Below, in pieces: positions 33,782-64,000 of a DNA stretch of 64,000 nucleotides; within the stretch, counting starts at the first letter, position 1; each line of letters starts with the position of its first letter. This DNA is from a candidate division FCPU426 bacterium (GTDB lineage: Bacteria > Oederibacteriota > Muellerivitia > Muellerivitales > Muellerivitaceae): contig CAVYSE010000005.1 in the NCBI GenBank assembly GCA_963771075.1, positions 38,684-102,683 on the forward strand, given 5' to 3'. The notes beneath the pieces were generated by a model. It saw only the letters and a list, made by a program, of their open reading frames with translations. It did not search any database and was not told where the DNA came from. Position numbers and translations under genes: made by a program.

Positions 33782-33810
33782 TTGACCATGACGGGGACCC
33801 GTCGTGGACA
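33782..33810 (+). repeat. Cassette-boundary palindrome, copy 1
   Basis: TTGACCATGACGGGGACCCGTCGTGGACA. Confidence 0.85.
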
Positions 33811-33920
33811 TGGGAAATAACTCGTTTTAACCCCGATTAGGACAGAACTTTTACCCCTCCTGTTTCGTCCTATAATTATCCAGGTGTTTGTAGTCTCGTT
33901 TTCGGGAAAGAGGTAAAGCT

Positions 33921-34736
33921 ATGAAACCAACCCATGGTTTTCCAAGTCTGTTAAAAATGGCTTTAACCTTGGCGGTTGCCTTTTTATTCAGCGGATGCGC
34001 GCAAAATCCCATGCCGCCCCTCTTCAGCCTTTACGGCTACCAGCGCCTGGCCATCATCCCCTTTGACAACAAAACGCAGGACCCGGCCTTGGCCGACGCC
34101 CTCCAGGATGAAATGGCCAGTGAGATCGTGAACCTCAACGCCCTTCCCGTCATTGAGGCGGGGCAGGTGGCGGCCTACCTGAAGTCCATCGGGGCAAAGG
34201 CTTCCGACGTGCCTACGGATCATGGATTGCGGCAACAAATCGCCCAATATTTCAAATGCGACATCTTCTTATTGGGCACAGCCGATGGATATACCGAGTT
34301 ACTCAAGGATGAGGCGCCCCAAAGGTCGGACTTGGGGTGGGGCTTTTACACGGACCGCAAGGTGGTCATCACCAACAGCGCCAAGCTGATGGACCCGGCC
34401 AGTGGCGGCATCCTCTGGTTCCGAAACAAGAACTGGGGCGCCAGTTGGCACAACACATGGAACCCCCTTCCCGTTCCGCAAACAGTGGTTCTTCCGGGTC
34501 TGTTGGGCCAATTCGTCGACCTGGCTAACATGGTGTTAAACCGGGTGGACCACAATGTGGATGTTGAGCCTCCCACGGTCGACGAAACCTATTCCGGCAG
34601 CCCGATCTACACCCAAAGCAGGGCTTTTGCCAGGCAACGCCAGAAGGCCATTGTCGCCACGGTGAATTCCCTGGTGGATGACTTCCAGGGCCATTACAAC
34701 TGGACGCCGGGGTTAAGGACCAACAACAACCAATAA
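33921..34736 (+). CDS. Putative lipoprotein (CsgG/GNA1162-like fold)
   Basis: Lipobox FSGC and RLAIIPFDN motif. Confidence 0.7.
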   Translation: MKPTHGFPSLLKMALTLAVAFLFSGCAQNPMPPLFSLYGYQRLAIIPFDNKTQDPALADALQDEMASEIVNLNALPVIEAGQVAAYLKSIGAKASDVPTDHGLRQQIAQYFKCDIFLLGTADGYTELLKDEAPQRSDLGWGFYTDRKVVITNSAKLMDPASGGILWFRNKNWGASWHNTWNPLPVPQTVVLPGLLGQFVDLANMVLNRVDHNVDVEPPTVDETYSGSPIYTQSRAFARQRQKAIVATVNSLVDDFQGHYNWTPGLRTNNNQ

Positions 34737-34858
34737 GGCCGCAAGTGCGGGAAATCCGGTTACCGATTCCCTTCGGAAAACAATGAAAAAATGGTATTGA
34801 TTTGTCCGGGATGTGAAGCTGTTTCAAGAATTGGAACAGGGGATTTTAGCGGGACACA

Positions 34859-35689
34859 TTGGAATTCAGAAATATGAATAAAATCCCACAAACCGTATTG
34901 AAAGCATTCAATGTTGAAGCGGAAACGCAATTGTTGGATGGCGGCCAAGGTGAATCTTTTCGGGCGGGTAACATTGTCCTGAAACCAGCCCTCCTCGAAG
35001 CCGAATGGCTTGCCGAAAACCTTAAAGACTTAAAAGAAGATGGTTTCAGAATCCCAAGGCCCGTTTCAACAAGGGATGGGAAGTGGATCTTTGATCGATG
35101 GTGCGCCTGGACTTTTATTTATGGCCGGCATGATCCCACGCGTGTGCAAGAGATAGTCCAAACCGCGAAGGTGTTTAATGCTTCGCTCAAGGGGTTTTCC
35201 AGGCCGGATTTTCTGGATCAACGGCAGGATCCTTGGGCCATAGCGGATCGAATGGCATGGGGTGAGATTCCAATAGCTTGCCACCCCTCCCTTATGGTAC
35301 CGATCAATAGAATTTCCGAACTTTTAAAACCGATTGATCTGCCGAGCCAGCTTATCCACTGTGATCTTATCGGCAACGTTCTTTTTGAGGATGAACATGC
35401 ACCTGGAGTCATTGATTTTTCCCTTAACTGGCGGCCTCCCGATTATTCCCTCGCCATTATTGTGGTTGACGCAATGAACTGGAATGGCGCTGATGAATCA
35501 GTTCTGCGATATATTGGTGATGTTCCTGATTTTTTTCAGCTTTTGATCAGAGCCCAAATATTCCGCCTGGCTGTTTTGGAAGGATTTCGTCAAAGAGGGG
35601 CGGACATATCCCGAGGAATAAGAGGAGAAGAAAGAACCGTTGAACTGATATGCGGAAAGCTCAAAGATAAATACCACAAAACTGCTTAA
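34859..35689 (+). CDS. Aminoglycoside phosphotransferase-like kinase (TIGR02569-like)
   Basis: LDGGQG, VLKP, DPWAIADRMAWGE, QLIHCDLIGNVLF, IDFS. Confidence 0.8.
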   Translation: MEFRNMNKIPQTVLKAFNVEAETQLLDGGQGESFRAGNIVLKPALLEAEWLAENLKDLKEDGFRIPRPVSTRDGKWIFDRWCAWTFIYGRHDPTRVQEIVQTAKVFNASLKGFSRPDFLDQRQDPWAIADRMAWGEIPIACHPSLMVPINRISELLKPIDLPSQLIHCDLIGNVLFEDEHAPGVIDFSLNWRPPDYSLAIIVVDAMNWNGADESVLRYIGDVPDFFQLLIRAQIFRLAVLEGFRQRGADISRGIRGEERTVELICGKLKDKYHKTA

Positions 35690-35694
35690 GTAGG

Positions 35695-35723
35695 TTGTCC
35701 GCGACGGGGACCCATCGCGAACA
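35695..35723 (+). repeat. Cassette-boundary palindrome, copy 2
   Basis: TTGTCCGCGACGGGGACCCATCGCGAACA, with a compensatory G/C change. Confidence 0.85.
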
Positions 35724-35770
35724 TCTAATGTGGGTTGGAGTTATACGATGGGCTATCGTATAATTAAGCT

Positions 35771-35986
35771 ATGAAAGTCACCGCGCTATTACCCGATAAA
35801 CTAGTACGGGAAGTCCAAGGTTTTGCCAAAGGCAAAAACCTCACGGAATCGCTCGTCAAAGCATTATCGGAATGGAACCAACAACAAAAAATCAGGGATT
35901 TGAATCAACTGGTTCTTGAGCATCCCCTGGGTTTCTCCAAAACTTTTTCCGCCCCTCGCGTTCGAGCCAAAAACAGAAAATCATGA
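35771..35986 (+). CDS. VapB-like antitoxin (DUF2191-like)
   Basis: 71 aa, overlaps the PIN gene (ATGA). Palindromic operator and TATAAT at 35741-35764. Confidence 0.75.
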   Translation: MKVTALLPDKLVREVQGFAKGKNLTESLVKALSEWNQQQKIRDLNQLVLEHPLGFSKTFSAPRVRAKNRKS

Positions 35987-36357
35987 TCCTTGTCGATACC
36001 TCCATTTGGGTGGAGTTTCTCAAGGGGCATCAACCCTATTTTGATCAAATGAAACAATTGTTGGAGGAACGCCAAGTCCTTGCGGTCGAACCTGTTTTCG
36101 GCGAATTGCTCCAAGGAGCTAAAGATGACCGTGAAAGGCGGATTCTTCAGGGATTTTGGGAAAATCTTCCCAAAAATAAAATACAGGATGCCTGGGTGAA
36201 GGCGGGGGAATTATCCTCCCGAAAAAAATGGAGTGATCGCGGAATCGGATTGATCGACGTGGTCTTGATTATTTCCTCTCGGGATTCAAACGCAAAGATT
36301 TGGTCTTTAGATAAGAAGTTAAATAGCGTATTGCACAAGAATGAGATTTTTGAATAG
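35983..36357 (+). CDS. vapC: VapC/PIN-domain toxin
   Basis: MILVDTSIWVEF, GELLQG, IGLID, IWSLDK. Confidence 0.9.
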   Translation: MILVDTSIWVEFLKGHQPYFDQMKQLLEERQVLAVEPVFGELLQGAKDDRERRILQGFWENLPKNKIQDAWVKAGELSSRKKWSDRGIGLIDVVLIISSRDSNAKIWSLDKKLNSVLHKNEIFE

Positions 36358-36363
36358 CTTTGC

Positions 36364-36392
36364 TTGTTTACGATGAGGTCCCATCGTGGACA
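36364..36392 (+). repeat. Cassette-boundary palindrome, copy 3
   Basis: TTGTTTACGATGAGGTCCCATCGTGGACA. Confidence 0.8.
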
Positions 36393-36457
36393 TGAAAAAT
36401 CATGGATAATGGGCTTGGTCTCCTTGTTCCACTATCCCAGTGAAAGGTAGTAAATAA

Positions 36458-38071
36458 ATGAAATACCAATGGTTGTTCGCGTTCTTGCTTGCAGTTCCAT
36501 CCTGGGCCCTTCCCGCCGACAAGGCATTTGAATTATTTCCTCCGGCCAATAACGCCGCGCCGGAGACCTTTACCAAGGCGGTCCAACCCTTCCCGGCGGA
36601 GGGCAAGCCCTGGAAGTTCGCTCATGGCGCCAAGGTCCAGGTCAAGGTGGATGCCGCGCAGGTTCTGCAAAAGATCACCCCCTATCAATTCGGGTCCAAT
36701 CTCGCCTGTTGGGATAACAAACAATTCGTGAACGACCCGGATTGCCAGGAAAAGGTCAGGCAGGCGGGCATCCGGTTCTGGCGCTGGCCGGGAGGCAGTA
36801 CCTCGGACAACTACCATTGGGATGGCAAGTATGGGGACCATACCAAGGACCATGACGGGGGGAACCCGCCGAATATGAACGAACCCTGGGCCGCCTCCAC
36901 CGACGATTTCATTTCCTTCTGCCAGAAGACGAATTCGGAAGCCATCGTGACGGTCAACTACGGCGCAGCCCGTTATGAGAATGTCCGGTACGCGGCCGAC
37001 CTGGCCGCCCGGTGGGTGCATTATTTCAACTTCGAGAAGAATTTCAGGGTGCGTTATTGGGAGATTGGCAACGAGAATTTCGGGTCCTGGGAAGAGGGGA
37101 ACCAGCTGGCAGGCAAATCGCAATTGACCGGCGATGTCTATGGCAAGGATTTCCAGGTGATCGCCTCGGCCATGCGAAAAGTGGACCCGGACATCTTTAT
37201 CGGGGCGGTGGCCGTGGACAAGGACAGCGGGGATGATTGGAATGGTTACCACTGGTGGATGAGGGGCCTTCTGCCCCAGCTTCAACGGAAAGCCGATTTC
37301 CTGATCTTCCATGAATATTTCATATGGCCCTTCGATGGCGCGAAAAACTATACCAATCCCAGCAACCAGGTTCTTCTGTCGAACCTTCACGAGATCCCCG
37401 ACGCCAAGGCCGCTTTCGATGACATGGAAGACAAATACGCGCCGACCGAGAAGGGTTTGCCCATCGCCGCGACCGAGTTCAACATGATCAACGGCGATCC
37501 CCCCCAGACGATCCAACTGTTGAACGGGTTATTTGCGGCGGAAGCCCTGGGGGAGATGATCAAGACGGGTTTCAAAAATTCCAACATCTGGGACCTGAAG
37601 AACGGCCTGGATGAGAAGCTCAAGGGGGACCATGGCTTGCTGGCCTATGGGGACTCCCGGATTCCGGCGGGTACACCCCGGCCGACCTATTACACTTACG
37701 CCCTTTATTCCCGGGCTTTCGGGGACACCCTGGTTTCGGCGGAGAGCGCGGACCCAACGGTAAAGATCTATGCCAGCCGTTTTTCGGGCGGGGAACTGGG
37801 TTTGGTCATCGTGAACGAGAATGACCAGAACCGCACGGCCGTTTTTGACCTGGCGGGGTTCAAGCCCCAGGGAAAACTGATGGGATGGGTCATGACCGGC
37901 AAGAATCTTAATGATTTTCAGGTTTCGTGGAACGGCGAAATGGGACCGGCGGGAGGGGGAGGGCCCTATCCCATCCAGACGATCCCGCCATACCGGGCCG
38001 TCTTCAAGACCAATCAACCCCTCCAGCTACCCTTGCAAGCCAGGTCGGTTACGGGCCTTATCCTTTATTAG
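36458..38071 (+). CDS. Secreted clan-A glycoside hydrolase (alpha-L-arabinofuranosidase/GH44-51-like)
   Basis: Signal peptide, RWPGGSTSDNYHW, YWEIGNE (acid/base) and ATEFN (nucleophile). Confidence 0.8.
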   Translation: MKYQWLFAFLLAVPSWALPADKAFELFPPANNAAPETFTKAVQPFPAEGKPWKFAHGAKVQVKVDAAQVLQKITPYQFGSNLACWDNKQFVNDPDCQEKVRQAGIRFWRWPGGSTSDNYHWDGKYGDHTKDHDGGNPPNMNEPWAASTDDFISFCQKTNSEAIVTVNYGAARYENVRYAADLAARWVHYFNFEKNFRVRYWEIGNENFGSWEEGNQLAGKSQLTGDVYGKDFQVIASAMRKVDPDIFIGAVAVDKDSGDDWNGYHWWMRGLLPQLQRKADFLIFHEYFIWPFDGAKNYTNPSNQVLLSNLHEIPDAKAAFDDMEDKYAPTEKGLPIAATEFNMINGDPPQTIQLLNGLFAAEALGEMIKTGFKNSNIWDLKNGLDEKLKGDHGLLAYGDSRIPAGTPRPTYYTYALYSRAFGDTLVSAESADPTVKIYASRFSGGELGLVIVNENDQNRTAVFDLAGFKPQGKLMGWVMTGKNLNDFQVSWNGEMGPAGGGGPYPIQTIPPYRAVFKTNQPLQLPLQARSVTGLILY

Positions 38072-38144
38072 GTCGATAAGGTTGGCTTTCGACCGCAGCC
38101 GATAGATTAAACAGGTCTTGGACTGCCAATAAACCTTTTGTTAC

Positions 38145-38173
38145 TTGTCCACGACGGGGACCCGTCGCGGACA
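38145..38173 (+). repeat. Cassette-boundary palindrome, copy 4
   Basis: TTGTCCACGACGGGGACCCGTCGCGGACA. Confidence 0.9.
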
Positions 38174-38295
38174 GGTAATTCGAACCATGCCAACCCCCTT
38201 TTCAGGTCAAAGATTGAAGAGGTTTTAGATCCCATTGCAGGATTATCGATATAATGATATCATGATATCGTTACCATTCATTTGGGAGGAGACCC

Positions 38296-38547
38296 ATGGC
38301 CCAACTCATCGTTAGAAATTTAGATGACAGCGTGAAGATGAAGCTGAGCCAAAGGGCCCGGAAGAATGGGCACAGCACGGAGGAAGAAGTACGGGATATC
38401 TTGAGAAACGCGGTAGGAAAAGATAGGGGCCTCGCCCCCATGCCATTGGGCGCCAGGTTTAAGGCGCGGTTTAGCAAGATAGGCCTAACTAGGGAAATCC
38501 CCGAATTGCGTGGACAGCAGGCCCAACCCGCCACCCTTGTCCCATGA
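38296..38547 (+). CDS. FitA/StbC-like ribbon-helix-helix antitoxin
   Basis: MAQLIVRNLDD...ARKNGHSTEEEVRDIL, overlapping the PIN gene. Confidence 0.88.
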   Translation: MAQLIVRNLDDSVKMKLSQRARKNGHSTEEEVRDILRNAVGKDRGLAPMPLGARFKARFSKIGLTREIPELRGQQAQPATLVP

Positions 38548-38963
38548 TCCTGCTCGATACAAATGTCCTTTCCGCATTGATGCTTCGGGAACCGGACCCT
38601 ACGGTCGTTTCATGGCTGGATCGCCAGTCCGTTGAATCGGTTTGGACAACGACGATCACGGTATTTGAAATTCGGTTTGGCCTCGAGAACCTGGCGGGTG
38701 GGAAAAGACGGCGTCAGCTGGAAGAAATTTTTAACCAAACCCTGGAAATTGATTTGGAAGGCCGAGTCCTGCCATTTGACCTGGCCGCGGCCCGGGCGTC
38801 TGCCTCGATCGCGGCCCAACAAAGAAAAAGTGGGCGTCCGGTTGAGATACGAGATGTCCAGATTGCCGGGATCACTTTGGCCAGCAAGGCTACATTAGCC
38901 ACCCGCAATATCCGGCATTTCCAAGGGCTTGGTATCCATCTGATCGATCCCTGGAAAGCCTAG
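38544..38963 (+). CDS. vapC: VapC/FitB PIN toxin
   Basis: MILLDTNVLS, DVQIAGI, LATRNIRHF, IDPW. Confidence 0.92.
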   Translation: MILLDTNVLSALMLREPDPTVVSWLDRQSVESVWTTTITVFEIRFGLENLAGGKRRRQLEEIFNQTLEIDLEGRVLPFDLAAARASASIAAQQRKSGRPVEIRDVQIAGITLASKATLATRNIRHFQGLGIHLIDPWKA

Positions 38964-38964
38964 C

Positions 38965-38993
38965 CTGTCCACGATGGGGACCCGGATTGGTCA
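38965..38993 (+). repeat. Cassette-boundary palindrome, copy 5 (right arm degenerate)
   Basis: CTGTCCACGATGGGGACCCGGATTGGTCA, 1 nt after the stop codon. Confidence 0.8.
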
Positions 38994-39011
38994 AAGAAAG
39001 AAGGTTAGACA

Positions 39012-39290
39012 ATGGTAAATAAAAAGACGGTTGTGATGAAGATAAACATCAAGGCGTTCGGATTGGCTTGTGGTTTGTTGTGGGGTCTGGGAGTTTTAGG
39101 CCTGACTTGGTGGGTCATCCTTTTCGAGGGGCCAACCCACGACCTGATGTTGCTTGGACACATCTACCGGGGTTATGACATCAGCCCCGCCGGAAGTTTG
39201 ATTGGGACTGCTTATGGCCTGGTGGATGGAGGGGTGGGCGGCGTCGTTTTCGCCTGGCTTTATAACCTCCTCTGCGTCAAGTTCAAATGA
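39012..39290 (+). CDS. Small two-TM membrane protein (holin-like family)
   Basis: KAFGLACGLLWG...YRGY...GSLIG..YGLVDG...FAWLYN. Confidence 0.7.
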   Translation: MVNKKTVVMKINIKAFGLACGLLWGLGVLGLTWWVILFEGPTHDLMLLGHIYRGYDISPAGSLIGTAYGLVDGGVGGVVFAWLYNLLCVKFK

Positions 39291-39309
39291 TCAGGTGTTG
39301 AGGAATAGC

Positions 39310-39338
39310 TTGTCCACGATGGGGACCCTTCGTGGACA
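39310..39338 (+). repeat. Cassette-boundary palindrome, copy 6 (intron target)
   Basis: TTGTCCACGATGGGGACCCTTCGTGGACA, directly before intron copy 1. Confidence 0.9.
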
Positions 39339-41317
39339 TCGTGCCAGCGAAGGTTTGTAGAGCCAGCAGGTGAGGGAGTAGGCCGAAGAGGGCCAGCCCA
39401 AATCCTGACCAGGTAATCGCCAGAGAGCCTGGAAGTCAGCCCCCGGCGTAGGACCGAGAGGTTCTGCCCGAAACGGGGTCATAAACCTCATTCAGTGAGG
39501 GAACAATCTAGCAGTCCGCAACATCAAGTGAATCCTGCCGCGTCGTGAATGGGACACCGAAAGGTGCAAGAGGATGCCGAGCCGCGTGTCTACCGGCGAA
39601 GGCCACGATCCCGCTGAAGAATCTGGAGCAAGCGGGGCAAGTCCTCCGGCGTATGGGGAACGGAATGCTGGAAAGGCTTTGCAAGCAACCTGGGAGATCC
39701 TACCCGCCAAAAGACTTGCCGCTATAAGGCTAAAACCGAAAAGGGGCAAGGGCGGGAGGAAGTCGGAGGGGGTCACAATACCTGTGAAGGGTGGACAACA
39801 AAACCACCTGGAGGGAAGGACCCCTGCTTCAACCAAGCAACCTTCAAAAGGGAGGCGCTGGAGCATGCCCCAAAGGGCCAACAACTCCGAAGACAAGGCG
39901 CGAACCCTTCAAAGGGCGCTATACCGAGCGGCCAAGAGGAGCCCAAGCCGGAGATTTCATGTACTGCATGACAGGATGACCCGATGGGATGTCCTGACAG
40001 CGGCATGGAAACAGGTGAAGGCTAATAAAGGCCAAGGAGGAGTGGACGGGGAAACGCTGGAATGGATCGAAGAGAAGGTGGGAATTATTCCATTCCTGAA
40101 GGGCATCCAGGAAGAACTCAAAGCTGGGAAGTATCTGCCTAAACCTGTGAGACGAGTGGAAATACCCAAGCCTGATGGAAGCAAGAGACCGTTGGGAATC
40201 CCGGTAATTCGGGATCGGGTAGTTCAAGCGGCTTGCCGGAAGGTGGTGGAACCCATCTTTGAGGCGGACTTTCTGGAAGGCTCGTTTGGATTTCGGCCAA
40301 AACGCGGAGCCCAGCAGGCCCACCGGGAGATCAAGAAGTGGATCAATGGCGGGTACAGATGGGTGGTGGATGGAGATATTCGGAAGTATTTCGATTCCAT
40401 CGACCACGACAAACTGATGGTGCTGGTGCGCCAGAGGATCAGTGACCGGAAGGTTTTGAAACTGATCCGAGGGTGGCTGAAGGCGGGTGTGTTTGAGGAA
40501 GGAAGGCTTACGCCGACTCTCCGAGGGACACCGCAAGGCGGGGTGATCTCACCGCTGTTATCCAATGTTTACCTTCACTTGCTGGACAAGGTTTGGAATA
40601 AGAGGCACAGGAAACTGGGTAGGCTGGTGCGCTACGCCGACGATTTTGTGGTGTTGTGCGGAAGCCAAGCCCATGCGGAAAAGAGCCTGGAAGTCATCAA
40701 GGAATTGATGGGACGACTAGGGCTTGAACTGCACCCCGAAAAGACACGGCTGGTGGAAATGGGGCCTGGGAAGGAAGGGTTTGACTTCCTTGGGTTCCAC
40801 TTTCGAGTAGGTATGCCGGTGGTAGGATTGGGTAAGACCTGTTGCCTGAGCTGGCCGAGCCGGAAGGCCATGAAGAAAATCGCCGAGAAAGTGAAGCAGA
40901 TGACGGCGGGCCGAGAGCGGCTCTTATCTCCAATGGAGGATGTAGCGAAGGCTTTGAACCCGGTGTTAAGGGGGTGGGCCAACTATTTCCGAATTGGGGA
41001 CAGCCAGCCATACTTTTCCAAGCTTCAATTTTACGTACTCGAAAGGCTGACTTTGTTTCGGAGGCATAAGTACGCCTGGGAAGGACGAACATGGTCGATC
41101 GAGGAAGTGAAACGCCTTGGTTTGAACTGGATTCCAGCTTTTGCCTTGAATGCTGCCGGTTGAAAGGTTGTCGGAAAGCCGTATGATCGAAAAGGTCACG
41201 TACGGTTTGATGAGGGGGCGCTGGAAACGTGGTGATGAGAGCCGGACTGAGGCCCAATCCGAAAGGGTTGGATTCGCCACCGTACTCTAAGGCATACGCG
41301 CCAGCGCTCTACTCTGC
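39339..41317 (+). mobile_element. Group II intron, copy 1 (~1.98 kb)
   Basis: Appears identical to the other two copies between these limits. Contains an RT ORF, domain V (AAGCCGTATG...TACGGTTT, 41176-41208) and a domain VI ending CTACTCTGC. Confidence 0.93.
39865..41163 (+). CDS. ltrA: Group II intron reverse transcriptase/maturase (no endonuclease domain)
   Basis: GGAGG RBS, RPLGIPVIRDRVVQ, GTPQGGVISPLLSN, RYADDF, FDFLGF, LRGWANYF. Confidence 0.95.
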   Translation: MPQRANNSEDKARTLQRALYRAAKRSPSRRFHVLHDRMTRWDVLTAAWKQVKANKGQGGVDGETLEWIEEKVGIIPFLKGIQEELKAGKYLPKPVRRVEIPKPDGSKRPLGIPVIRDRVVQAACRKVVEPIFEADFLEGSFGFRPKRGAQQAHREIKKWINGGYRWVVDGDIRKYFDSIDHDKLMVLVRQRISDRKVLKLIRGWLKAGVFEEGRLTPTLRGTPQGGVISPLLSNVYLHLLDKVWNKRHRKLGRLVRYADDFVVLCGSQAHAEKSLEVIKELMGRLGLELHPEKTRLVEMGPGKEGFDFLGFHFRVGMPVVGLGKTCCLSWPSRKAMKKIAEKVKQMTAGRERLLSPMEDVAKALNPVLRGWANYFRIGDSQPYFSKLQFYVLERLTLFRRHKYAWEGRTWSIEEVKRLGLNWIPAFALNAAG

Positions 41318-41353
41318 ACGAAAAGTCACGCATAAGAGGCAGTTTATGATTAG

Positions 41354-41773: not shown

Positions 41774-41786
41774 TTCACATGAAGAG

Positions 41787-41815
41787 CTGTCCACGACGGG
41801 GACCCGTCGTGGACG
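41787..41815 (+). repeat. Cassette-boundary palindrome, copy 7
   Basis: CTGTCCACGACGGGGACCCGTCGTGGACG. Confidence 0.9.
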
Positions 41816-41867
41816 ATGTTTTTAAGTTTATTACCCAAATTATAAGTTCTTTCAGATTGGATGTTTT

Positions 41868-43253: not shown

Positions 43254-43265
43254 TGTGGGAGTTCG

Positions 43266-43294
43266 CTGTCCACGATGGGGACCCGTCGTGGACA
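43266..43294 (+). repeat. Cassette-boundary palindrome, copy 8
   Basis: CTGTCCACGATGGGGACCCGTCGTGGACA. Confidence 0.9.
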
Positions 43295-43374
43295 AGCTTT
43301 AGTCACAAGGCCAAGATGAAAATTCAAAATGGGTGATTATTGAAAACTGAGAAGGTGGAAAGAAGCTTAACCCA

Positions 43375-43878: not shown

Positions 43879-43907
43879 TTGTCCACGATGGGGACCCATC
43901 GTGGACA
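43879..43907 (+). repeat. Cassette-boundary palindrome, copy 9 (intron target)
   Basis: TTGTCCACGATGGGGACCCATCGTGGACA. Confidence 0.9.
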
Positions 43908-45886
43908 TCGTGCCAGCGAAGGTTTGTAGAGCCAGCAGGTGAGGGAGTAGGCCGAAGAGGGCCAGCCCAAATCCTGACCAGGTAATCGCCAGAGAGCCTG
44001 GAAGTCAGCCCCCGGCGTAGGACCGAGAGGTTCTGCCCGAAACGGGGTCATAAACCTCATTCAGTGAGGGAACAATCTAGCAGTCCGCAACATCAAGTGA
44101 ATCCTGCCGCGTCGTGAATGGGACACCGAAAGGTGCAAGAGGATGCCGAGCCGCGTGTCTACCGGCGAAGGCCACGATCCCGCTGAAGAATCTGGAGCAA
44201 GCGGGGCAAGTCCTCCGGCGTATGGGGAACGGAATGCTGGAAAGGCTTTGCAAGCAACCTGGGAGATCCTACCCGCCAAAAGACTTGCCGCTATAAGGCT
44301 AAAACCGAAAAGGGGCAAGGGCGGGAGGAAGTCGGAGGGGGTCACAATACCTGTGAAGGGTGGACAACAAAACCACCTGGAGGGAAGGACCCCTGCTTCA
44401 ACCAAGCAACCTTCAAAAGGGAGGCGCTGGAGCATGCCCCAAAGGGCCAACAACTCCGAAGACAAGGCGCGAACCCTTCAAAGGGCGCTATACCGAGCGG
44501 CCAAGAGGAGCCCAAGCCGGAGATTTCATGTACTGCATGACAGGATGACCCGATGGGATGTCCTGACAGCGGCATGGAAACAGGTGAAGGCTAATAAAGG
44601 CCAAGGAGGAGTGGACGGGGAAACGCTGGAATGGATCGAAGAGAAGGTGGGAATTATTCCATTCCTGAAGGGCATCCAGGAAGAACTCAAAGCTGGGAAG
44701 TATCTGCCTAAACCTGTGAGACGAGTGGAAATACCCAAGCCTGATGGAAGCAAGAGACCGTTGGGAATCCCGGTAATTCGGGATCGGGTAGTTCAAGCGG
44801 CTTGCCGGAAGGTGGTGGAACCCATCTTTGAGGCGGACTTTCTGGAAGGCTCGTTTGGATTTCGGCCAAAACGCGGAGCCCAGCAGGCCCACCGGGAGAT
44901 CAAGAAGTGGATCAATGGCGGGTACAGATGGGTGGTGGATGGAGATATTCGGAAGTATTTCGATTCCATCGACCACGACAAACTGATGGTGCTGGTGCGC
45001 CAGAGGATCAGTGACCGGAAGGTTTTGAAACTGATCCGAGGGTGGCTGAAGGCGGGTGTGTTTGAGGAAGGAAGGCTTACGCCGACTCTCCGAGGGACAC
45101 CGCAAGGCGGGGTGATCTCACCGCTGTTATCCAATGTTTACCTTCACTTGCTGGACAAGGTTTGGAATAAGAGGCACAGGAAACTGGGTAGGCTGGTGCG
45201 CTACGCCGACGATTTTGTGGTGTTGTGCGGAAGCCAAGCCCATGCGGAAAAGAGCCTGGAAGTCATCAAGGAATTGATGGGACGACTAGGGCTTGAACTG
45301 CACCCCGAAAAGACACGGCTGGTGGAAATGGGGCCTGGGAAGGAAGGGTTTGACTTCCTTGGGTTCCACTTTCGAGTAGGTATGCCGGTGGTAGGATTGG
45401 GTAAGACCTGTTGCCTGAGCTGGCCGAGCCGGAAGGCCATGAAGAAAATCGCCGAGAAAGTGAAGCAGATGACGGCGGGCCGAGAGCGGCTCTTATCTCC
45501 AATGGAGGATGTAGCGAAGGCTTTGAACCCGGTGTTAAGGGGGTGGGCCAACTATTTCCGAATTGGGGACAGCCAGCCATACTTTTCCAAGCTTCAATTT
45601 TACGTACTCGAAAGGCTGACTTTGTTTCGGAGGCATAAGTACGCCTGGGAAGGACGAACATGGTCGATCGAGGAAGTGAAACGCCTTGGTTTGAACTGGA
45701 TTCCAGCTTTTGCCTTGAATGCTGCCGGTTGAAAGGTTGTCGGAAAGCCGTATGATCGAAAAGGTCACGTACGGTTTGATGAGGGGGCGCTGGAAACGTG
45801 GTGATGAGAGCCGGACTGAGGCCCAATCCGAAAGGGTTGGATTCGCCACCGTACTCTAAGGCATACGCGCCAGCGCTCTACTCTGC
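43908..45886 (+). mobile_element. Group II intron, copy 2
   Basis: Same sequence as copy 1 (offset 4569) with different flanks. Confidence 0.93.
44434..45732 (+). CDS. ltrA: Group II intron RT/maturase
   Basis: Protein identical to copy 1. Confidence 0.95.
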   Translation: MPQRANNSEDKARTLQRALYRAAKRSPSRRFHVLHDRMTRWDVLTAAWKQVKANKGQGGVDGETLEWIEEKVGIIPFLKGIQEELKAGKYLPKPVRRVEIPKPDGSKRPLGIPVIRDRVVQAACRKVVEPIFEADFLEGSFGFRPKRGAQQAHREIKKWINGGYRWVVDGDIRKYFDSIDHDKLMVLVRQRISDRKVLKLIRGWLKAGVFEEGRLTPTLRGTPQGGVISPLLSNVYLHLLDKVWNKRHRKLGRLVRYADDFVVLCGSQAHAEKSLEVIKELMGRLGLELHPEKTRLVEMGPGKEGFDFLGFHFRVGMPVVGLGKTCCLSWPSRKAMKKIAEKVKQMTAGRERLLSPMEDVAKALNPVLRGWANYFRIGDSQPYFSKLQFYVLERLTLFRRHKYAWEGRTWSIEEVKRLGLNWIPAFALNAAG

Positions 45887-46905: not shown

Positions 46906-46929
46906 AAGGTTGCTATGAGGCCATTCCTC

Positions 46930-47119
46930 AAGTTCAATTAAGCCCACCCGTCAGCCTTTTGGTTTCGCGGATTCACGCTGCTATTCGTGCTCGAGGCACA
47001 AGTTAAAAATTCGATAATCCAGTAGGGAAGCCACCAGCTGTCCATCGTGCCTTACGGCACCACCAAATTCCGTGGTCATTCCAAAGGGATCGAATCACAA
47101 AACCGAGGCTGAAACCTCT
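46930..47119 (-). ncRNA. Putative bridge/seek RNA region of the IS1111 element
   Basis: About 190 nt of non-coding sequence 3' of the transposase, as expected for IS1111. Contains AGCTGTCCA (47036-47044, + strand), which matches the repeat junction. Confidence 0.55.
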
Positions 47120-48196
47120 TTAGCGCATGGGCCGATACACTTCCTTCCGAACCAACATCGTCCAAAGGTGAATCAAAAGCTTGTGCGCCATTGCCACAAT
47201 CGCCTTGTTGACGTGTCCCGTATTACGGACCAGTCGACGAAAAACACGGTAGGCCTGGGTATCCTTTTGGATCCATGACCAGGCCGCTTCAACCAAGGTC
47301 GCTCTCAAAGTGCCTTTTCCGGCCTTCTGTAAATGGCCTTCCTTCCGGGTTTCACCGCTTTGCCTGATCCTAGGGGCCAACCCCACGTAAGCCGCCACTT
47401 GTTTGGCGTTTTCAAAGCGTTCCGGCTGGTAAATCTCCGTTAATACTTGCAGGGTCGTCACTTCGCCCACTCCTGGGTGGGTTCTCAGGATCTTGGCCTT
47501 TTTCTCGTAGGCCTTCTCCTTCATCATGACCCTCAAACGTATGTTCACGTCCTTGAGCTGCCTATCAAAGTAAAAAAGATCTTCCAATAGGCGATCCAAG
47601 GTGAACCTCAGGGCAGGTGGCAGTTCCATTTCCCGTAATATCCCAATGGCTTCGTGGGTCCAGTAATCCAACCCTCTGGGAGTTTTGAGCCCATATTGAA
47701 GGAAGAAGCTCTTGATCCTTTGTTTGGCCTTGCGTTTCTGCTCGACCATCGCGTTCCTCAAACGAACCACCTGCCGGTCAGCTTCTTCCTGGAGGGTTGG
47801 GATCGCCACCGCCTTCAGCAATTCTTTCTCCGCATACTCCGCCAGTTTGCTACAGTCCAAACGGTCGGATTTTGTTTCAAACTGCGACACGCGAGGAGTC
47901 TTGTGCGGGGCGATGACATCCAATGGGTATCCCTCCTCCCGAAGGCGGCGGGCCAGGCCAAAACCGGTAGGGCCTGCCTCGTAGACGACCTTTTTCAACC
48001 CCACCCGATAAGGCGCCAGGACCTTCACCACCGCCTCCCAGTCCGCTGTCAGGGACTTTGTTCCGACTTCCTTTCCGTTAATCCTGATTGCCATATAAAT
48101 ACTTCGTTTGTGGACATCCAATCCCACAAACACAGCGTCCCGCTTGGATACCTCCTTGCCTCGGTATCCTTTTTTGCTAATCTGTTTCATGGCCAT
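47120..48196 (-). CDS. IS110-family DEDD recombinase/transposase
   Basis: FVGLDVHK, YEAGPTG, KSDRLD, PGVG, YVGLAPRIRQSG, AIVAMAHKL. Confidence 0.95.
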   Translation of the reverse strand: MAMKQISKKGYRGKEVSKRDAVFVGLDVHKRSIYMAIRINGKEVGTKSLTADWEAVVKVLAPYRVGLKKVVYEAGPTGFGLARRLREEGYPLDVIAPHKTPRVSQFETKSDRLDCSKLAEYAEKELLKAVAIPTLQEEADRQVVRLRNAMVEQKRKAKQRIKSFFLQYGLKTPRGLDYWTHEAIGILREMELPPALRFTLDRLLEDLFYFDRQLKDVNIRLRVMMKEKAYEKKAKILRTHPGVGEVTTLQVLTEIYQPERFENAKQVAAYVGLAPRIRQSGETRKEGHLQKAGKGTLRATLVEAAWSWIQKDTQAYRVFRRLVRNTGHVNKAIVAMAHKLLIHLWTMLVRKEVYRPMR

Positions 48197-48266
48197 TCCT
48201 CCTTGTGAGTTGCCTGCTCACCGGGACTAGTTTAATCCCGGCGGAGGAATGGCCTTCATGTTACCT

Positions 48267-48293
48267 GTCCACGACGGGGACCCGTCGTGGACA
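48267..48293 (+). repeat. Cassette-boundary palindrome, copy 10 (IS1111 target)
   Basis: GTCCACGACGGGGACCCGTCGTGGACA. The missing TT lies at 46910-46911. Confidence 0.9.
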
Positions 48294-48376
48294 CCTAATT
48301 CTGACGTGGCTTTGGATAAACCTCTTTGCTTTAGTCATGGGTGATAAGGACTGAATTTTAGGACGAAAGGAAAACC

Positions 48377-48978: not shown

Positions 48979-49007
48979 TTGTCCACGACGGGGACCCATC
49001 GTGGACG
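48979..49007 (+). repeat. Cassette-boundary palindrome, copy 11 (intron target)
   Basis: TTGTCCACGACGGGGACCCATCGTGGACG. Confidence 0.9.
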
Positions 49008-50986
49008 TCGTGCCAGCGAAGGTTTGTAGAGCCAGCAGGTGAGGGAGTAGGCCGAAGAGGGCCAGCCCAAATCCTGACCAGGTAATCGCCAGAGAGCCTG
49101 GAAGTCAGCCCCCGGCGTAGGACCGAGAGGTTCTGCCCGAAACGGGGTCATAAACCTCATTCAGTGAGGGAACAATCTAGCAGTCCGCAACATCAAGTGA
49201 ATCCTGCCGCGTCGTGAATGGGACACCGAAAGGTGCAAGAGGATGCCGAGCCGCGTGTCTACCGGCGAAGGCCACGATCCCGCTGAAGAATCTGGAGCAA
49301 GCGGGGCAAGTCCTCCGGCGTATGGGGAACGGAATGCTGGAAAGGCTTTGCAAGCAACCTGGGAGATCCTACCCGCCAAAAGACTTGCCGCTATAAGGCT
49401 AAAACCGAAAAGGGGCAAGGGCGGGAGGAAGTCGGAGGGGGTCACAATACCTGTGAAGGGTGGACAACAAAACCACCTGGAGGGAAGGACCCCTGCTTCA
49501 ACCAAGCAACCTTCAAAAGGGAGGCGCTGGAGCATGCCCCAAAGGGCCAACAACTCCGAAGACAAGGCGCGAACCCTTCAAAGGGCGCTATACCGAGCGG
49601 CCAAGAGGAGCCCAAGCCGGAGATTTCATGTACTGCATGACAGGATGACCCGATGGGATGTCCTGACAGCGGCATGGAAACAGGTGAAGGCTAATAAAGG
49701 CCAAGGAGGAGTGGACGGGGAAACGCTGGAATGGATCGAAGAGAAGGTGGGAATTATTCCATTCCTGAAGGGCATCCAGGAAGAACTCAAAGCTGGGAAG
49801 TATCTGCCTAAACCTGTGAGACGAGTGGAAATACCCAAGCCTGATGGAAGCAAGAGACCGTTGGGAATCCCGGTAATTCGGGATCGGGTAGTTCAAGCGG
49901 CTTGCCGGAAGGTGGTGGAACCCATCTTTGAGGCGGACTTTCTGGAAGGCTCGTTTGGATTTCGGCCAAAACGCGGAGCCCAGCAGGCCCACCGGGAGAT
50001 CAAGAAGTGGATCAATGGCGGGTACAGATGGGTGGTGGATGGAGATATTCGGAAGTATTTCGATTCCATCGACCACGACAAACTGATGGTGCTGGTGCGC
50101 CAGAGGATCAGTGACCGGAAGGTTTTGAAACTGATCCGAGGGTGGCTGAAGGCGGGTGTGTTTGAGGAAGGAAGGCTTACGCCGACTCTCCGAGGGACAC
50201 CGCAAGGCGGGGTGATCTCACCGCTGTTATCCAATGTTTACCTTCACTTGCTGGACAAGGTTTGGAATAAGAGGCACAGGAAACTGGGTAGGCTGGTGCG
50301 CTACGCCGACGATTTTGTGGTGTTGTGCGGAAGCCAAGCCCATGCGGAAAAGAGCCTGGAAGTCATCAAGGAATTGATGGGACGACTAGGGCTTGAACTG
50401 CACCCCGAAAAGACACGGCTGGTGGAAATGGGGCCTGGGAAGGAAGGGTTTGACTTCCTTGGGTTCCACTTTCGAGTAGGTATGCCGGTGGTAGGATTGG
50501 GTAAGACCTGTTGCCTGAGCTGGCCGAGCCGGAAGGCCATGAAGAAAATCGCCGAGAAAGTGAAGCAGATGACGGCGGGCCGAGAGCGGCTCTTATCTCC
50601 AATGGAGGATGTAGCGAAGGCTTTGAACCCGGTGTTAAGGGGGTGGGCCAACTATTTCCGAATTGGGGACAGCCAGCCATACTTTTCCAAGCTTCAATTT
50701 TACGTACTCGAAAGGCTGACTTTGTTTCGGAGGCATAAGTACGCCTGGGAAGGACGAACATGGTCGATCGAGGAAGTGAAACGCCTTGGTTTGAACTGGA
50801 TTCCAGCTTTTGCCTTGAATGCTGCCGGTTGAAAGGTTGTCGGAAAGCCGTATGATCGAAAAGGTCACGTACGGTTTGATGAGGGGGCGCTGGAAACGTG
50901 GTGATGAGAGCCGGACTGAGGCCCAATCCGAAAGGGTTGGATTCGCCACCGTACTCTAAGGCATACGCGCCAGCGCTCTACTCTGC
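49008..50986 (+). mobile_element. Group II intron, copy 3
   Basis: Same sequence as copy 1 (offset 9669) with different flanks. Confidence 0.93.
49534..50832 (+). CDS. ltrA: Group II intron RT/maturase
   Basis: Protein identical to copy 1. Confidence 0.95.
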   Translation: MPQRANNSEDKARTLQRALYRAAKRSPSRRFHVLHDRMTRWDVLTAAWKQVKANKGQGGVDGETLEWIEEKVGIIPFLKGIQEELKAGKYLPKPVRRVEIPKPDGSKRPLGIPVIRDRVVQAACRKVVEPIFEADFLEGSFGFRPKRGAQQAHREIKKWINGGYRWVVDGDIRKYFDSIDHDKLMVLVRQRISDRKVLKLIRGWLKAGVFEEGRLTPTLRGTPQGGVISPLLSNVYLHLLDKVWNKRHRKLGRLVRYADDFVVLCGSQAHAEKSLEVIKELMGRLGLELHPEKTRLVEMGPGKEGFDFLGFHFRVGMPVVGLGKTCCLSWPSRKAMKKIAEKVKQMTAGRERLLSPMEDVAKALNPVLRGWANYFRIGDSQPYFSKLQFYVLERLTLFRRHKYAWEGRTWSIEEVKRLGLNWIPAFALNAAG

Positions 50987-51646: not shown

Positions 51647-51675
51647 TTGTCCACGATGGGGACCCATCGTGAACA
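51647..51675 (+). repeat. Cassette-boundary palindrome, copy 12
   Basis: TTGTCCACGATGGGGACCCATCGTGAACA. Confidence 0.9.
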
Positions 51676-51699
51676 AGGGAATTATGAGGTTTGTAATAA

Positions 51700-57161: not shown

Positions 57162-57320
57162 CGAAAACGACCCCTTCAACCCGCCCCGCAGGGCGGTACG
57201 GCTGGTCGCGCCGTGAGGGAAGCGGTTGTTTTAGCGGCCAAACTAGGGTGACCACTAAATCGGGGGAAGTCCACACGACTAAAGGGGTAAAATAGCCGTT
57301 ATCGGGTTGTCTACGATGGG
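57162..57320 (+). repeat. ~160-bp structured non-coding segment, copy A
   Basis: Near-identical to 59392-59550 and runs into a cassette-boundary palindrome. Confidence 0.85.
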
Positions 57321-57335
57321 GACCCGAAGTGGACA
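57307..57335 (+). repeat. Cassette-boundary palindrome, copy 13
   Basis: TTGTCTACGATGGGGACCCGAAGTGGACA. Confidence 0.85.
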
Positions 57336-57458
57336 ATCCACTAAGTGAACAAAAGGCCAAAATCCTTTCTTTCCTTCAATATTGAAACGACCTCCCTTTA
57401 AAGAATTATTTCCAAAAAAAGACTTGCAAAACATTACACCATAAGGTGCAATATAGGC

Positions 57459-59391: not shown

Positions 59392-59550
59392 CGAAAACGA
59401 CCCCTTCAACCCGCCCCGCAGGGCGGTACGGCTGGTCGCGCCGTGAGGGAAGCGGTTGTTTTAGCGGCCAAACTAGGGTGACCACTAAATCGGGGAAGTC
59501 CACATGACCAAAGGGGGTAAAATAGCCGTTATCGGGTTGTCTACGATGGG
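59392..59550 (+). repeat. ~160-bp structured non-coding segment, copy B
   Basis: Near-identical to 57162-57320. Confidence 0.85.
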
Positions 59551-59602
59551 CCATGTAGCTAAGCGCAAGCGCATGCTACATGGCGGGGATCCATCGTGGA
59601 TA
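59537..59602 (+). repeat. Cassette-boundary palindrome, copy 14, with a 37-bp insert
   Basis: TTGTCTACGATGGG[CCATGTAGCTAAGCGCAAGCGCATGCTACATGGCGGG]GATCCATCGTGGATA. Confidence 0.85.
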
Positions 59603-59627
59603 GGGCAAATGTGCAATTAATTGAATG

Positions 59628-61700: not shown

Positions 61701-61740
61701 TAGGCCCCATTCTGCAGGGGCTTCTGGGCACGCTACGGAT

Positions 61741-61768
61741 TTTCCACTGCGGGTCCCCGTCGTGGGAA
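61741..61768 (-). repeat. Cassette-boundary palindrome, copy 15 (inverted, degenerate)
   Basis: Reverse complement reads TTCCCACGACGGGGACCCGCAGTGGAAA. Confidence 0.65.
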
Positions 61769-61790
61769 GGCAAAATCAGAAAGAACAAGA

Positions 61791-62680: not shown

Positions 62681-62688
62681 TCCGGACT

Positions 62689-63201
62689 ATGCCTGGCCCA
62701 AAATGGAAAATGGTACCCGTCACGGAAAAAGCTGAACTCCAATCTTTCGATTGCGGGATACCTGAACTCAATGATTACCTGAAAAGGTACGCGGGCCAGA
62801 ACCACCGAAAAGGGTTGGGCAGCACTTACGTTCTCGTTCCCGCCGAGGGGGAACCACTGGCAGTCGGGTACCATACCTTAAGTATGGCTCAGGTGGATCT
62901 GCAAAACTTGCCCGAATCCCATTGCAAAAACCTACCGAAGTATCCTGTTCCTGCGGTTCGATTAGGCCGTCTTGCCGTTGACCGCAAATGGCAAGGGGCT
63001 GGATTGGGGGAGATCCTATTGATGGATGCGATTCACCGGTCTGTTGCGGCGGTTCAATCAGTCGCGGCTAAGTATAAGATCGTAGACGCTAAAAACAAAA
63101 AAGCTGAAGAGTTTTACTTGCGCTACGGTTTTCATCCCTTTGAGGGAGGAGCCCATTCCCTGGTTGCCGCTATCGACACGTTAAAAGGGCTTTTTGGGTA
63201 G
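62689..63201 (+). CDS. GNAT acetyltransferase toxin (TacT/AtaT-like)
   Basis: FDCGIPELNDYL, PAVRLGRLAVD..WQGAGLG, VDAKN...FYLRYGF. Confidence 0.92.
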   Translation: MPGPKWKMVPVTEKAELQSFDCGIPELNDYLKRYAGQNHRKGLGSTYVLVPAEGEPLAVGYHTLSMAQVDLQNLPESHCKNLPKYPVPAVRLGRLAVDRKWQGAGLGEILLMDAIHRSVAAVQSVAAKYKIVDAKNKKAEEFYLRYGFHPFEGGAHSLVAAIDTLKGLFG

Positions 63202-63207
63202 AAAGGT

Positions 63208-63237
63208 TTGTCCGCGACGGGGGGCCGGGATGGGCAA
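63208..63237 (+). repeat. Cassette-boundary palindrome, copy 17 (degenerate)
   Basis: TTGTCCGCGACGGGGGGCCGGGATGGGCAA, 6 nt after the stop codon. Confidence 0.65.
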
Positions 63238-63251
63238 ATAAATAATTTGAA

Positions 63252-63749
63252 TTGAGGAGGATGATCGTGCGTAGATTGAAATCGCTTGGGATGATCGGGT
63301 TGGTTCTGGGCCTCGTTTTATTGGGTATGAATCATTGGGGCTGCTCAAGCTCGGATAACGAAGCCGATAGCAAGGCCTACGTGGATAAAGTCGCGCCGGT
63401 CCTATTCAAGGACTGGGATTCGACCCTCATTTTGGCCGAAGCCGATCCGGATCTGAAGAATTTCGCCGACACGAATAAAGACGCCTTCGATAAAGGGATC
63501 CAATCCTTCAAGGACGCGGTTGGCTCCATGAAAACCTACAAAGGCGCGACCCTTTTGGGGAAACCCACCGAAGGGCCGGACCATACGGTCGTCGCCGGTT
63601 ATTCCGTTGAGGCAGATTTCGAGAAAGGGACCAGCAAGGTTTTAGTGACCACTACCCTCCGCGGCGGGAAATGGCAGATGGGTCTTTTTAACCTCGACCC
63701 GCAAGCCGAGTTGCAAAGGATGACCAAGGCCCTGACCCCGAACCCTTAA
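63252..63749 (+). CDS. Putative lipoprotein (cassette)
   Basis: Hydrophobic leader then WGC. ADFEKG...GGKWQ tail. Confidence 0.65.
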   Translation: MRRMIVRRLKSLGMIGLVLGLVLLGMNHWGCSSSDNEADSKAYVDKVAPVLFKDWDSTLILAEADPDLKNFADTNKDAFDKGIQSFKDAVGSMKTYKGATLLGKPTEGPDHTVVAGYSVEADFEKGTSKVLVTTTLRGGKWQMGLFNLDPQAELQRMTKALTPNP

Positions 63750-63812
63750 ACCACCGGATGGGCCGGGAGTTTCGGCGGCCAAACGAACCATCGGCTTTTA
63801 GCTGATAAAGCT

Positions 63813-63867
63813 TTTTCCACGGCGGGCCATGTAGCTAAGCGCAAGCGCATGCTACATGGCGGGAACC
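63813..63867 (+). repeat. Degenerate boundary palindrome, copy 18, with the same 37-bp insert
   Basis: TTTTCCACGGCGGG[CCATGTAGCTAAGCGCAAGCGCATGCTACATGGCGGG]AACC. Confidence 0.7.
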
Positions 63868-63959
63868 AGAATAACCCGCGATTGTACCTTCGCTATTTCA
63901 ATGGGCCGTTTGACAAATTAACTGAGAGTATTACAATGTATTACATATAGGAGGGTTCG

Positions 63960-64000
63960 ATGAAAACCATGTTAAACGTTCGCTTGACGCCCGAATTGGG
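63960..64000 (+). CDS. Start of a probable ribbon-helix-helix (antitoxin-like) gene, 3'-partial
   Basis: TTGACA/TACAAT promoter, GGAGG RBS, MKTMLNVRLTPEL. Confidence 0.5.
   Translation, partial: MKTMLNVRLTPEL

Follow-up and report, generated by a model that had tools for sequence, protein, structure and literature searches.

A 30-bp sequence-defined site bounds gene cassettes in chromosomal arrays of a candidate division FCPU426 family, with a short serine recombinase as the candidate enzyme

The stretch of DNA described here (the window, 64,000 nucleotides, G000:C5:38684-102683 of the source genome G000) carries in its second half an array of small gene units that are separated by copies of a 30-bp palindromic site. 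The source is a candidate division FCPU426 bacterium of soil or bog habitat, known solely from metagenomes. The best explanation of the findings as a whole is that the site is the recombination site of a gene-cassette system, with a short serine recombinase as the most likely enzyme; the probability of this reading is put at roughly 0.55. Its two parts are not equally firm. It is quite probable that the arrays are a site-specific cassette system, whereas the proposition that the short serine recombinase drives cassette movement has, on the sequence evidence, even odds at best.

The consensus of the site is YTGTCCACGAY-GGGGACCC-RTCGTGGACAA, with the 8-bp centre GGGGACCC. The palindrome is perfect apart from the central GA (positions 15-16). 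With up to 3 mismatches allowed, the 30-mer occurs at 10 loci of the window (13 strand matches), whereas 100 shuffles predict 0.00. Window 1-33700 has no position within 9 mismatches of the site, in agreement with an earlier reading made from the letters of the window only (the sequence-only reading), which had found no copy in the housekeeping DNA; 20 shuffles of 33701-64000 gave no such position either. Conservation is confined to the 30 bp in G000 and its relatives, and the flanks are unconserved. Among 63 loci that were found with no constraint on the centre, each centre position is conserved in 61-63. A larger set consists of 213 distinct sites from G000 and its relatives; the central GA asymmetry is present in 213 of 213, these having been selected for an exact centre. 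The polarity of the GA is conserved and is uniform within arrays. Symmetric half-sites around an asymmetric central dinucleotide are the anatomy by which a serine-recombinase crossover site is recognized.

The conserved feature is thus a sequence read by a protein and not a hairpin. When only one arm is changed at pairs 2-10 of the 213 sites, 231 changes break the pair and 63 leave a wobble; when both arms are changed, 13 cases are compensated and 19 are not. The inner right arm, RTCGT/TTCGT, is missing in 78 of the 213 sites and is replaced in many copies by GGATT, GCATT, GGAGT and similar sequences. The canonical copy can form a hairpin of 12 bp (-13.6 kcal/mol, z -4.9), whereas no hairpin is obtained for the variant at 38965. 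It is the mostly uncompensated arm changes, the frequent loss of the inner right arm and the existence of an unfoldable copy that argue for sequence over structure. Centre variants are an ambiguous guide to the crossover point: those in the right half of the centre co-occur with variant right arms, and general decay has the same effect.

The copies are clustered. A search of G000 (nhmmer, E below 0.05) found 97 copies, 75 of which lie in 11 clusters of 3-14, and the orientation is uniform in almost every cluster. The genome-wide scan that the sequence-only reading had proposed thus gives co-oriented arrays, unlike the scatter of repetitive extragenic palindromic (REP) elements. The median interval between sites, genome-wide, is 788 bp, and several arrays reach contig ends, beside intron copies. 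The genome G004, from another genus and assembled in 5 contigs, has about 11 arrays spread across the chromosome. The left arm and centre are present in 28 of the 30 other family genomes, and a 27-mer of the site is present in 14 of 18 family genomes compared to 0 of 12 from other families of the phylum. Among 185,579 species genomes scanned for exact matches, 51 loci were found, all of them in metagenome-assembled genomes (MAGs), and a scan of viral contigs for the site gave 0 matches.

The layout first described for the window holds in most respects. Eighteen copies had been listed, most of them just behind stop codons and nearly all in one orientation. Thirteen of these are clear sites, all on the + strand with 1-5 mismatches; two are degenerate, of which the one at 61740 is inverted, and two are split. 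The copy proposed at 62302 has 11 mismatches and is unsupported, and the clear site placed at 48267 actually starts at 48265. Nine of the 13 clear sites lie 1-19 nt past the stop of a + strand open reading frame (ORF). The units are co-oriented, as had been claimed: genome-wide, 47 of 52 inter-site intervals have a longest frame that runs the same way as the sites. Their mixed GC content is also confirmed, with 0.42-0.62 per 2 kb within the array compared to 0.50-0.60 in the first 32 kb of the window.

The cargo includes the toxin-antitoxin (TA) pairs that had been noticed from the sequence. There are two PIN toxins in the window, one with a FitA-like ribbon-helix-helix (RHH) partner, a TacA/GNAT pair and an ArsR/AHSA1 pair, as well as an APH-like kinase, a SecY-like protein and many ORFs that belong to no Pfam family. 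Elsewhere in G000, a multi-copy family of low-complexity cassette genes, up to 861 aa long, lies beside sites at 12 loci (for example in the arrays C13:436-2589, C6:88218-90803 and C3:2020-4397).

Identical cassettes in different surroundings identify the cassette as the unit that moves. Cassette content is not syntenic: identical or near-identical units occur across arrays and genomes, with breakpoints at the sites, as the sequence-only reading had anticipated. G004 has a 1276-bp unit (site, 377-aa gene, site) in two arrays, which lie on different contigs; the two versions have 100% identity, bounded by the outer edges of the two sites. Two MAGs that represent distinct species in GTDB share a 1020-bp cassette with 100% identity; 4 contigs of one MAG have a 920-bp cassette in common, and 2 contigs an 1803-bp unit, again with 100% identity. 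Other cassette pairs have 86-91% identity, and the FitA/PIN cassette of the window has 88.8% identity to one in another MAG. In the informative cases, where the neighbors differ, identity ends exactly past the centre, between positions 19 and 20. A cassette therefore consists of the right arm of a site at its 5' end and the left arm and centre of the next at its 3' end, and exchange takes place inside the 8-bp centre.

The site is also the target of three site-specific kinds of elements, namely a group IIC intron, IS110 elements and the serine-recombinase junction described below. Three identical copies of the group II intron are found within the window, and all 10 full-length copies in G000 start 0-1 nt past a site, 7 co-oriented with it and 3 inverted. 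The use of both orientations suggests that the intron reads the stem and not the centre. Group IIC introns are known to require a stem-loop upstream of them, which may be an attC site or a terminator (PMC7923331). The IS110-family element (IS, insertion sequence) of the window has a second copy at G000:C9, and both are at the left edge of a CTGTCC site; a second IS110 type is present in four other arrays. Furthermore, 4 sites have their centre interrupted by a 33-bp palindrome (CCATGTAGC...GCTACATGG); two of these sites, at G000:C5:104245 and C20:37115, lie outside the window. The inserted palindrome has GGG on its left side and CGGG on its right, and it lengthens the hairpin to -20 kcal/mol.

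The candidate enzyme is the product of P0001 (G000:C8:80002-80835), the sole intact serine recombinase gene in G000. Its location on another contig fits the earlier expectation that the recombinase would be encoded outside the window. The protein contains a Resolvase and a Recombinase domain only and stops immediately short of the point where its 505-540-aa relatives have a CxxC zinc ribbon, so the zinc ribbon and coiled coil of large serine recombinases (LSRs) are missing. Its best NCBIfam matches, CcrB and CcrA, are far under the cut-off. P0001 belongs to a short clade of 19 cluster representatives with 68-96% identity, all of 275-283 aa and lacking the PF13408 zinc-ribbon family; the next matches have at most 61% identity. 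Six pairs among four of the short recombinase genes give dN/dS values of 0.085-0.188 and, judged by these substitution ratios, the gene is under purifying selection. The 19 short relatives and the low dN/dS indicate that the shortness of P0001 is not a one-off truncation. The 505-540-aa relatives adjoin tRNA genes like ordinary integrases. Three of the full-length proteins (509-515 aa; G014:C6, G019:C28 and G004:C2:1375795) are encoded by genes that end in or next to tRNA genes, and those of G014 and G019 have the same location, beside a glutamyl-tRNA synthetase-like gene. When the ORFs flanking the arrays (G000, G004, all loci) were compared all against all, the short serine recombinase was the only recurrent recombinase at array edges, besides the intron reverse transcriptase (RT) and IS genes.

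The recombinase gene converges on the array, and in 5 of 6 intact genes an inverted site lies about 15-40 nt past the stop codon. The gene-proximal arm of this site is degenerate, making the site a hybrid, in G000, G004, G038/L058, G033 and the metagenome L092; the gene in G034 has a half-site remnant only. Besides the intact gene, G000 contains three copies that are 5'-truncated. All four share 96-99.8% identity as far as the centre of the hybrid site; past it they are unrelated, and each of them is joined to a different cassette, a sequence pattern indicative of recent exchange at this centre. Junction remnants of the same type are present in G040, G004:C1 and G008. The hybrid arm, AAAAGGAACA, was considered as an attP/attB type, but it is also found at places where there is no recombinase gene, and G004 and G038 have other sequences in this arm. 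We therefore regard it as a right arm that has degenerated and not as another type of site.

The gene is associated with high numbers of sites. Among 31 family genomes, the gene or a trace of it is present in 6 of 6 genomes with at least 48 sites, compared to 1 of 25 others. The carrier is the site-richest genome in three of the four informative genera: 79 sites vs 37, 30 and 20 in genus g1, 98 vs 13, 9 and 2 in g3, and 79 and 50 (two carriers) vs 9 and 12 in g6. The exception is g12, where the carrier has 17 sites and its relative 23.

The gene probably travels on a conjugative element. It lies beside ArdC in G000 and G038/L058, and a TraG-like ATPase is encoded upstream in G000. The region G000:C8 ~60000-80000 resembles an integrative and conjugative element (ICE), with a TraG-type ATPase, an ArdC protein with a zincin peptidase domain and a PD-(D/E)XK nuclease, and it ends at the recombinase. 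A RadC-like gene is upstream of the recombinase in another MAG and past the array in G000; its position on the far side suggests that the array may be inside the ICE-like element.

The findings can be assembled into the following scheme, in which recombination would take place at the 30-bp element and the system would behave as an integron does, while having neither of the integron's parts. A cassette would start with a right arm and a short leader, continue with one or two co-oriented genes that lack promoters, and close with a left arm and the centre. Recombination between a pair of sites in direct repeat would release the cassette as a circle with one site, which could then insert at any other site, and cassettes would thereby spread among the ~10 arrays per chromosome and between genomes. 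The enzyme would be the 275-283-aa serine recombinase, derived from an LSR by loss of the zinc-ribbon and coiled-coil domains. A recombinase dimer would occupy two 14-bp half-sites and cut at the central GA, the sole asymmetric position. Loss of the coiled coil would have abolished attP x attB directionality and thereby allowed identical sites to recombine both ways. The size of the site is compatible with this. In the solved structure of an LSR-attP half-site complex (PMC3783163), the recombinase domain (RD) and zinc-ribbon domain (ZD) together cover 25 bp, the ZD being located at bp 16-24 or 11-19; an RD-only protein would thus cover ~13-15 bp per half-site, matching a site of 30 bp. We infer that the recombinase is catalytic, that it acts on duplex DNA with a 2-bp crossover and that recombination takes place in the present-day organisms. 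A broader proposal is more tentative, and we lean somewhat against it: that the system is a serine-recombinase counterpart of the integron, in which an LSR lacking zinc ribbon and coiled coil acts bidirectionally on identical sites, captures and exchanges cassettes, and is carried through the whole family by a conjugative element.

Several observations weigh against this scheme. No short recombinase or trace of it was found with the query used in 24 of the 31 family genomes, most of which have sites (37 in G002, 39 in G031 and 30 in G003). The compared genomes are kin and not independent, so the association between gene and site number rests on about 4 within-genus contrasts. Site-richer genomes may simply offer the recombinase more targets. 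Given its ArdC and TraG neighbors, the gene is perhaps a mere remnant of a conjugative-element integrase that used the site as its attB. The zinc domain of phiC31 integrase is reported as essential for DNA binding (PMC3152356), and a tblastn search of G000 with three full-length relatives found no C-terminal half that could serve as a split partner. The left arm has 0.9 mismatches on average and the right arm 1.7 (213 sites), an inequality that a symmetric dimer does not predict. As the centre is identical in all sites, the breakpoints can be resolved only to the centre as a whole. The contigs of public sequencing runs speak neither for nor against circles or deletions. Parts of window 35600-44000 are present in 19 runs from 8 studies (bog and soil), and the four that were compared are available as short Logan contigs, mostly of 250-2500 nt. 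In 11 of 12 joints the sides are 20-32 letters long and are the repeated site itself; joint X2 (39329 to 51667) has a 43-letter side and a depth of 2.8.

Of the alternatives, the one that survives best accepts the cassette system and assigns it to a tyrosine recombinase, the main suspect being the divergent Xer-like P0002 (G000:C6:114198-115235) acting on a lox- or dif-like site of 11-8-11 anatomy, with strands exchanged over the 8-bp centre. In that case the short serine recombinase would merely have been left behind by an integrative element for which the site is a target. We consider this unlikely. Simple tyrosine recombinase sites have the same arm-spacer-arm anatomy, and the invariance of the 8-bp centre, which counts in favor of a serine enzyme no more than of a tyrosine enzyme, is required of an overlap region that two partners must share. 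Unequal conservation of the arms is a property of XerC/XerD sites as well. One Xer-like gene is present in 17 of 18 family genomes and in the 1 sister-family genome, with 55-74% identity, whereas 9 of 11 genomes from other families of the phylum give at least 2 Xer-like matches at ~30% identity; P0002 itself is under the XerC and XerD cut-offs (167 vs 335 bits). A housekeeping enzyme would account for arrays in genomes that lack the serine recombinase. However, P0002 is far from every array, and an Xer-like gene is also present in site-poor genomes and in G019, which has 0 sites, even by the outer-arm pattern. No tyrosine recombinase gene adjoins a site, whereas the serine recombinase gene repeatedly does. 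The centre is palindromic except for 2 bp and would give a tyrosine enzyme only weak polarity.

A solitary, dif-like copy of the site would have favored an Xer enzyme, but none was identified, nor was a dif site of this clade found. In G012 the 27-mer has no match, the outer-arm pattern has one, and the left arm plus centre has 5. A dif reading of these few sites was rejected because the degenerate site examined is flanked by homologs of G000 cassette genes and is not in a solitary dif-like position; the locus has the look of an array in decay. G000 has eight tyrosine recombinases, which comprise a trio element, four paralogous integrases and the one Xer-like gene, and none is near an array. 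The trio, three consecutive genes of 449, 315 and 331 aa, is located at G000:C5:131804-135089, ~30 kb past the window.

A second alternative regards the site as a REP-like palindrome that serves a structural or regulatory purpose, such as protection of mRNA 3' ends or binding of a nucleoid protein, and that was amplified by some other route; cassettes would be shared by homologous recombination, and the introns and IS elements would merely favor a hairpin. The hairpin of the canonical copy, the position directly after stop codons and the ~100 copies per genome, some of them singletons behind ordinary genes, are in keeping with such a role, as is the use of the stem-loop by group IIC introns in either orientation. 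RecA-mediated exchange is compatible with breakpoints that fall within 19 identical bases. Nevertheless, this explanation is improbable. Most copies are in co-oriented arrays of accessory genes, arm changes are mostly uncompensated, and the palindromic inner right arm is often absent. The conserved, array-wide polarity of the central GA and the breakage of the hybrid junctions in the centre also speak against it, and 100% identical cassettes with exact site bounds in different species are hard to obtain through 30 bp of homology. No gene resembling a REP-associated tyrosine transposase (RAYT) is flanked by copies of the site: among 20 Y1-transposase matches in G000, none is flanked by inverted sites and 15 have no site within 6 kb. 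These 20 matches are IS copies of ~1 kb; they belong to several Y1/HUH IS families of ~1.03 kb with an unusually long transposase of ~317 aa, whose copies are 98-100% identical (for example C3:342571 and C26:76902).

The possibility that the site is a highly reduced attC and that the arrays are clusters of attC sites lacking integrases (CALINs) of a classical integron with an unassembled IntI is very remote, in spite of the parallels in layout, cargo and parasites (group IIC intron, IS110-family) with what is reported for integrons (PMC7923331). The sequence-only reading had already argued that the site is not an attC. The 265-bit cut-off of TIGR02249, used as the criterion for IntI, is reached in 0 of the 31 genomes, several of which are 97-99% complete, and the best score in G000 is 41.8 bits. 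R boxes are missing (GTTRRRY in 5 and RYYYAAC in 3 of the 213 sites), and there is no structure outside the 30 bp, with a flank complementarity of 5.83 against a null of 5.86. The self-folded 30-nt site yields a stem of only ~12 bp, and it is the sequence that is conserved rather than the structure. Intrinsic terminators of horizontally acquired genes, which a GC-rich hairpin shortly behind stop codons brings to mind, are just as implausible, as the T-tract 3' of the site is absent (positions +3 to +6 are A-rich), the sequence is near-identical across genera and many copies cannot form the hairpin.

The system most similar in organization is the integron. Integrons and CALINs likewise have short, mostly promoterless, co-oriented cassettes, each closed by a recombination site, with TA pairs and small unknown proteins as cargo. 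Many of their arrays have no adjacent recombinase, a group IIC intron and IS110-family elements target the site, and the recombinase gene can lie beside a hybrid site at one array end. IS1111 elements target attC. In contrast to integrons, no IntI was found here, the site is 30 bp long and conserved in sequence, with no R/L boxes, extrahelical bases or variable loop, and a chromosome has ~10 arrays. The serine candidate converges on the promoter-distal end of the array, instead of diverging from the proximal end.

The pdif modules of Acinetobacter, which are recombined by XerC/XerD, are alike in that small modules, including TA pairs, lie between short arm-centre-arm sites and are moved between replicons by a recombinase encoded elsewhere. 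The pdif sites, however, are 11-6-11, are copies of the host dif and are found mainly on plasmids, whereas the present sites have an 8-bp centre and form direct repeats in chromosomal arrays of genomes with one Xer-like gene and no dif-like solitary copy found. The orientation of pdif sites alternates.

The LSRs, including CcrA/CcrB of the staphylococcal cassette chromosome (SCC) and TnpX/TndX, have catalytic and recombinase domains homologous to those of the short protein, and LSR att sites are pseudo-palindromic half-sites about an asymmetric central dinucleotide. An att site can acquire more than one SCC element in tandem, and TnpX/TndX elements are excised as circles with GA at the joint. 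Here the protein has no zinc ribbon or coiled coil, the sites are uniform and 30 bp long in place of a 40-50-bp attP/attB pair, and the cassettes carry no recombinase of their own. REP/RAYT systems share with the present one a short GC-rich palindrome of family-specific sequence that occurs in ~100 copies after genes and is an IS110-family target. They differ in that here the copies form clustered, oriented arrays and serve as cassette boundaries, pairing is unpreserved and no Y1 gene is flanked.

Defining features of integrons, REP/RAYT elements and terminators are thus lacking, and for Xer modules the observations point neither way. We class the arrays as a novel type of system, integron-like in its mode of operation. 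A full-text literature search found no match to the site motif. Searches for serine-recombinase cassette arrays and chromosomal dif arrays, which did not cover supplementary files, found no description of such a system and returned only work on integrons and Acinetobacter pdif, in keeping with the suggestion that the system is undescribed.

The features of the window array are listed in Table 1. The array extends to about G000:C5:104300, ~1.6 kb past the end of the window, and also holds a DDE transposase and a Y1 IS fragment (56361-56678). The context of thiM differs between genomes: in two genomes of the same genus, the gene has another neighborhood, inside a block syntenic with contig C11 of G000, so that thiM itself may have been relocated. 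The genes of the left flank are on separate contigs in G001 and G002, and the 1275-aa gene of the right flank has no ortholog in G001-G003. Further upstream, an S-adenosylmethionine (SAM, S-box) riboswitch was found at window 29183-29314 (+, 72 bits), upstream of a gene for a pyridoxal phosphate (PLP)-dependent enzyme (29636-30844).

Table 1. Sites, inserted elements and the preceding gene of the window array (window coordinates).
Feature	Position	Strand	Description
thiM (hydroxyethylthiazole kinase)	32889..33710	+	final gene before the first site
site, first of the array	33782..33811	+	71 nt past thiM stop; left arm with 2 mismatches
site	35695..35724	+	4 mismatches; closes 2-gene cassette (271-aa unknown protein and APH-like kinase)
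site	36364..36393	+	5 mismatches; closes cassette of PIN gene and overlapping 71-aa ORF, no Pfam family
site	38145..38174	+	2 mismatches; follows 537-aa ORF with no Pfam family
site	38965..38994	+	right arm variant GGATTGGTCAA; closes FitA-like/PIN cassette
site	39310..39339	+	group II intron copy 1 immediately 3'
group II intron copy 1	39340..41319	+	~1980 nt; RT/maturase ORF 39574-41163
site	41787..41816	+	2 mismatches
site	43266..43295	+	1 mismatch; follows SecY-like 461-aa ORF
site	43879..43908	+	1 mismatch; followed by intron copy 2 (43909-45888)
IS110-family element	46911..48264	-	transposase 47120-48196; at left edge of site 48265
site	48265..48294	+	2 mismatches
site	48979..49008	+	2 mismatches; followed by intron copy 3 (49009-50988)
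site	51647..51676	+	1 mismatch
site	57307..57336	+	3 mismatches; 60-nt upstream flank found again at 59537
split site	59537..59603	+	nested 33-bp palindrome 59551-59583 in centre; hairpin -20 kcal/mol
degenerate inverted site	61740..61769	-	6 mismatches
degenerate site	63208..63237	+	7 mismatches; follows TacA/GNAT pair
split site	63813..63878	+	nested 33-bp palindrome 63827-63859 in centre

To our knowledge, among platforms for the capture of single genes as cassettes the integron alone is well understood, and all array-finding tools known to us search for IntI and attC. If the reading proposed here is true, cassette platforms would have evolved more than once, and these bacteria would have a second, unrelated solution, built on a 30-bp sequence-defined site and probably a minimal serine recombinase and visited by parallel parasites, a group IIC intron and IS110 elements. 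A small non-directional recombinase that acts on a short symmetric site would also be of interest as a genetic tool. The arrays would furthermore expose a hidden pool of mobile genes in soil bacteria.

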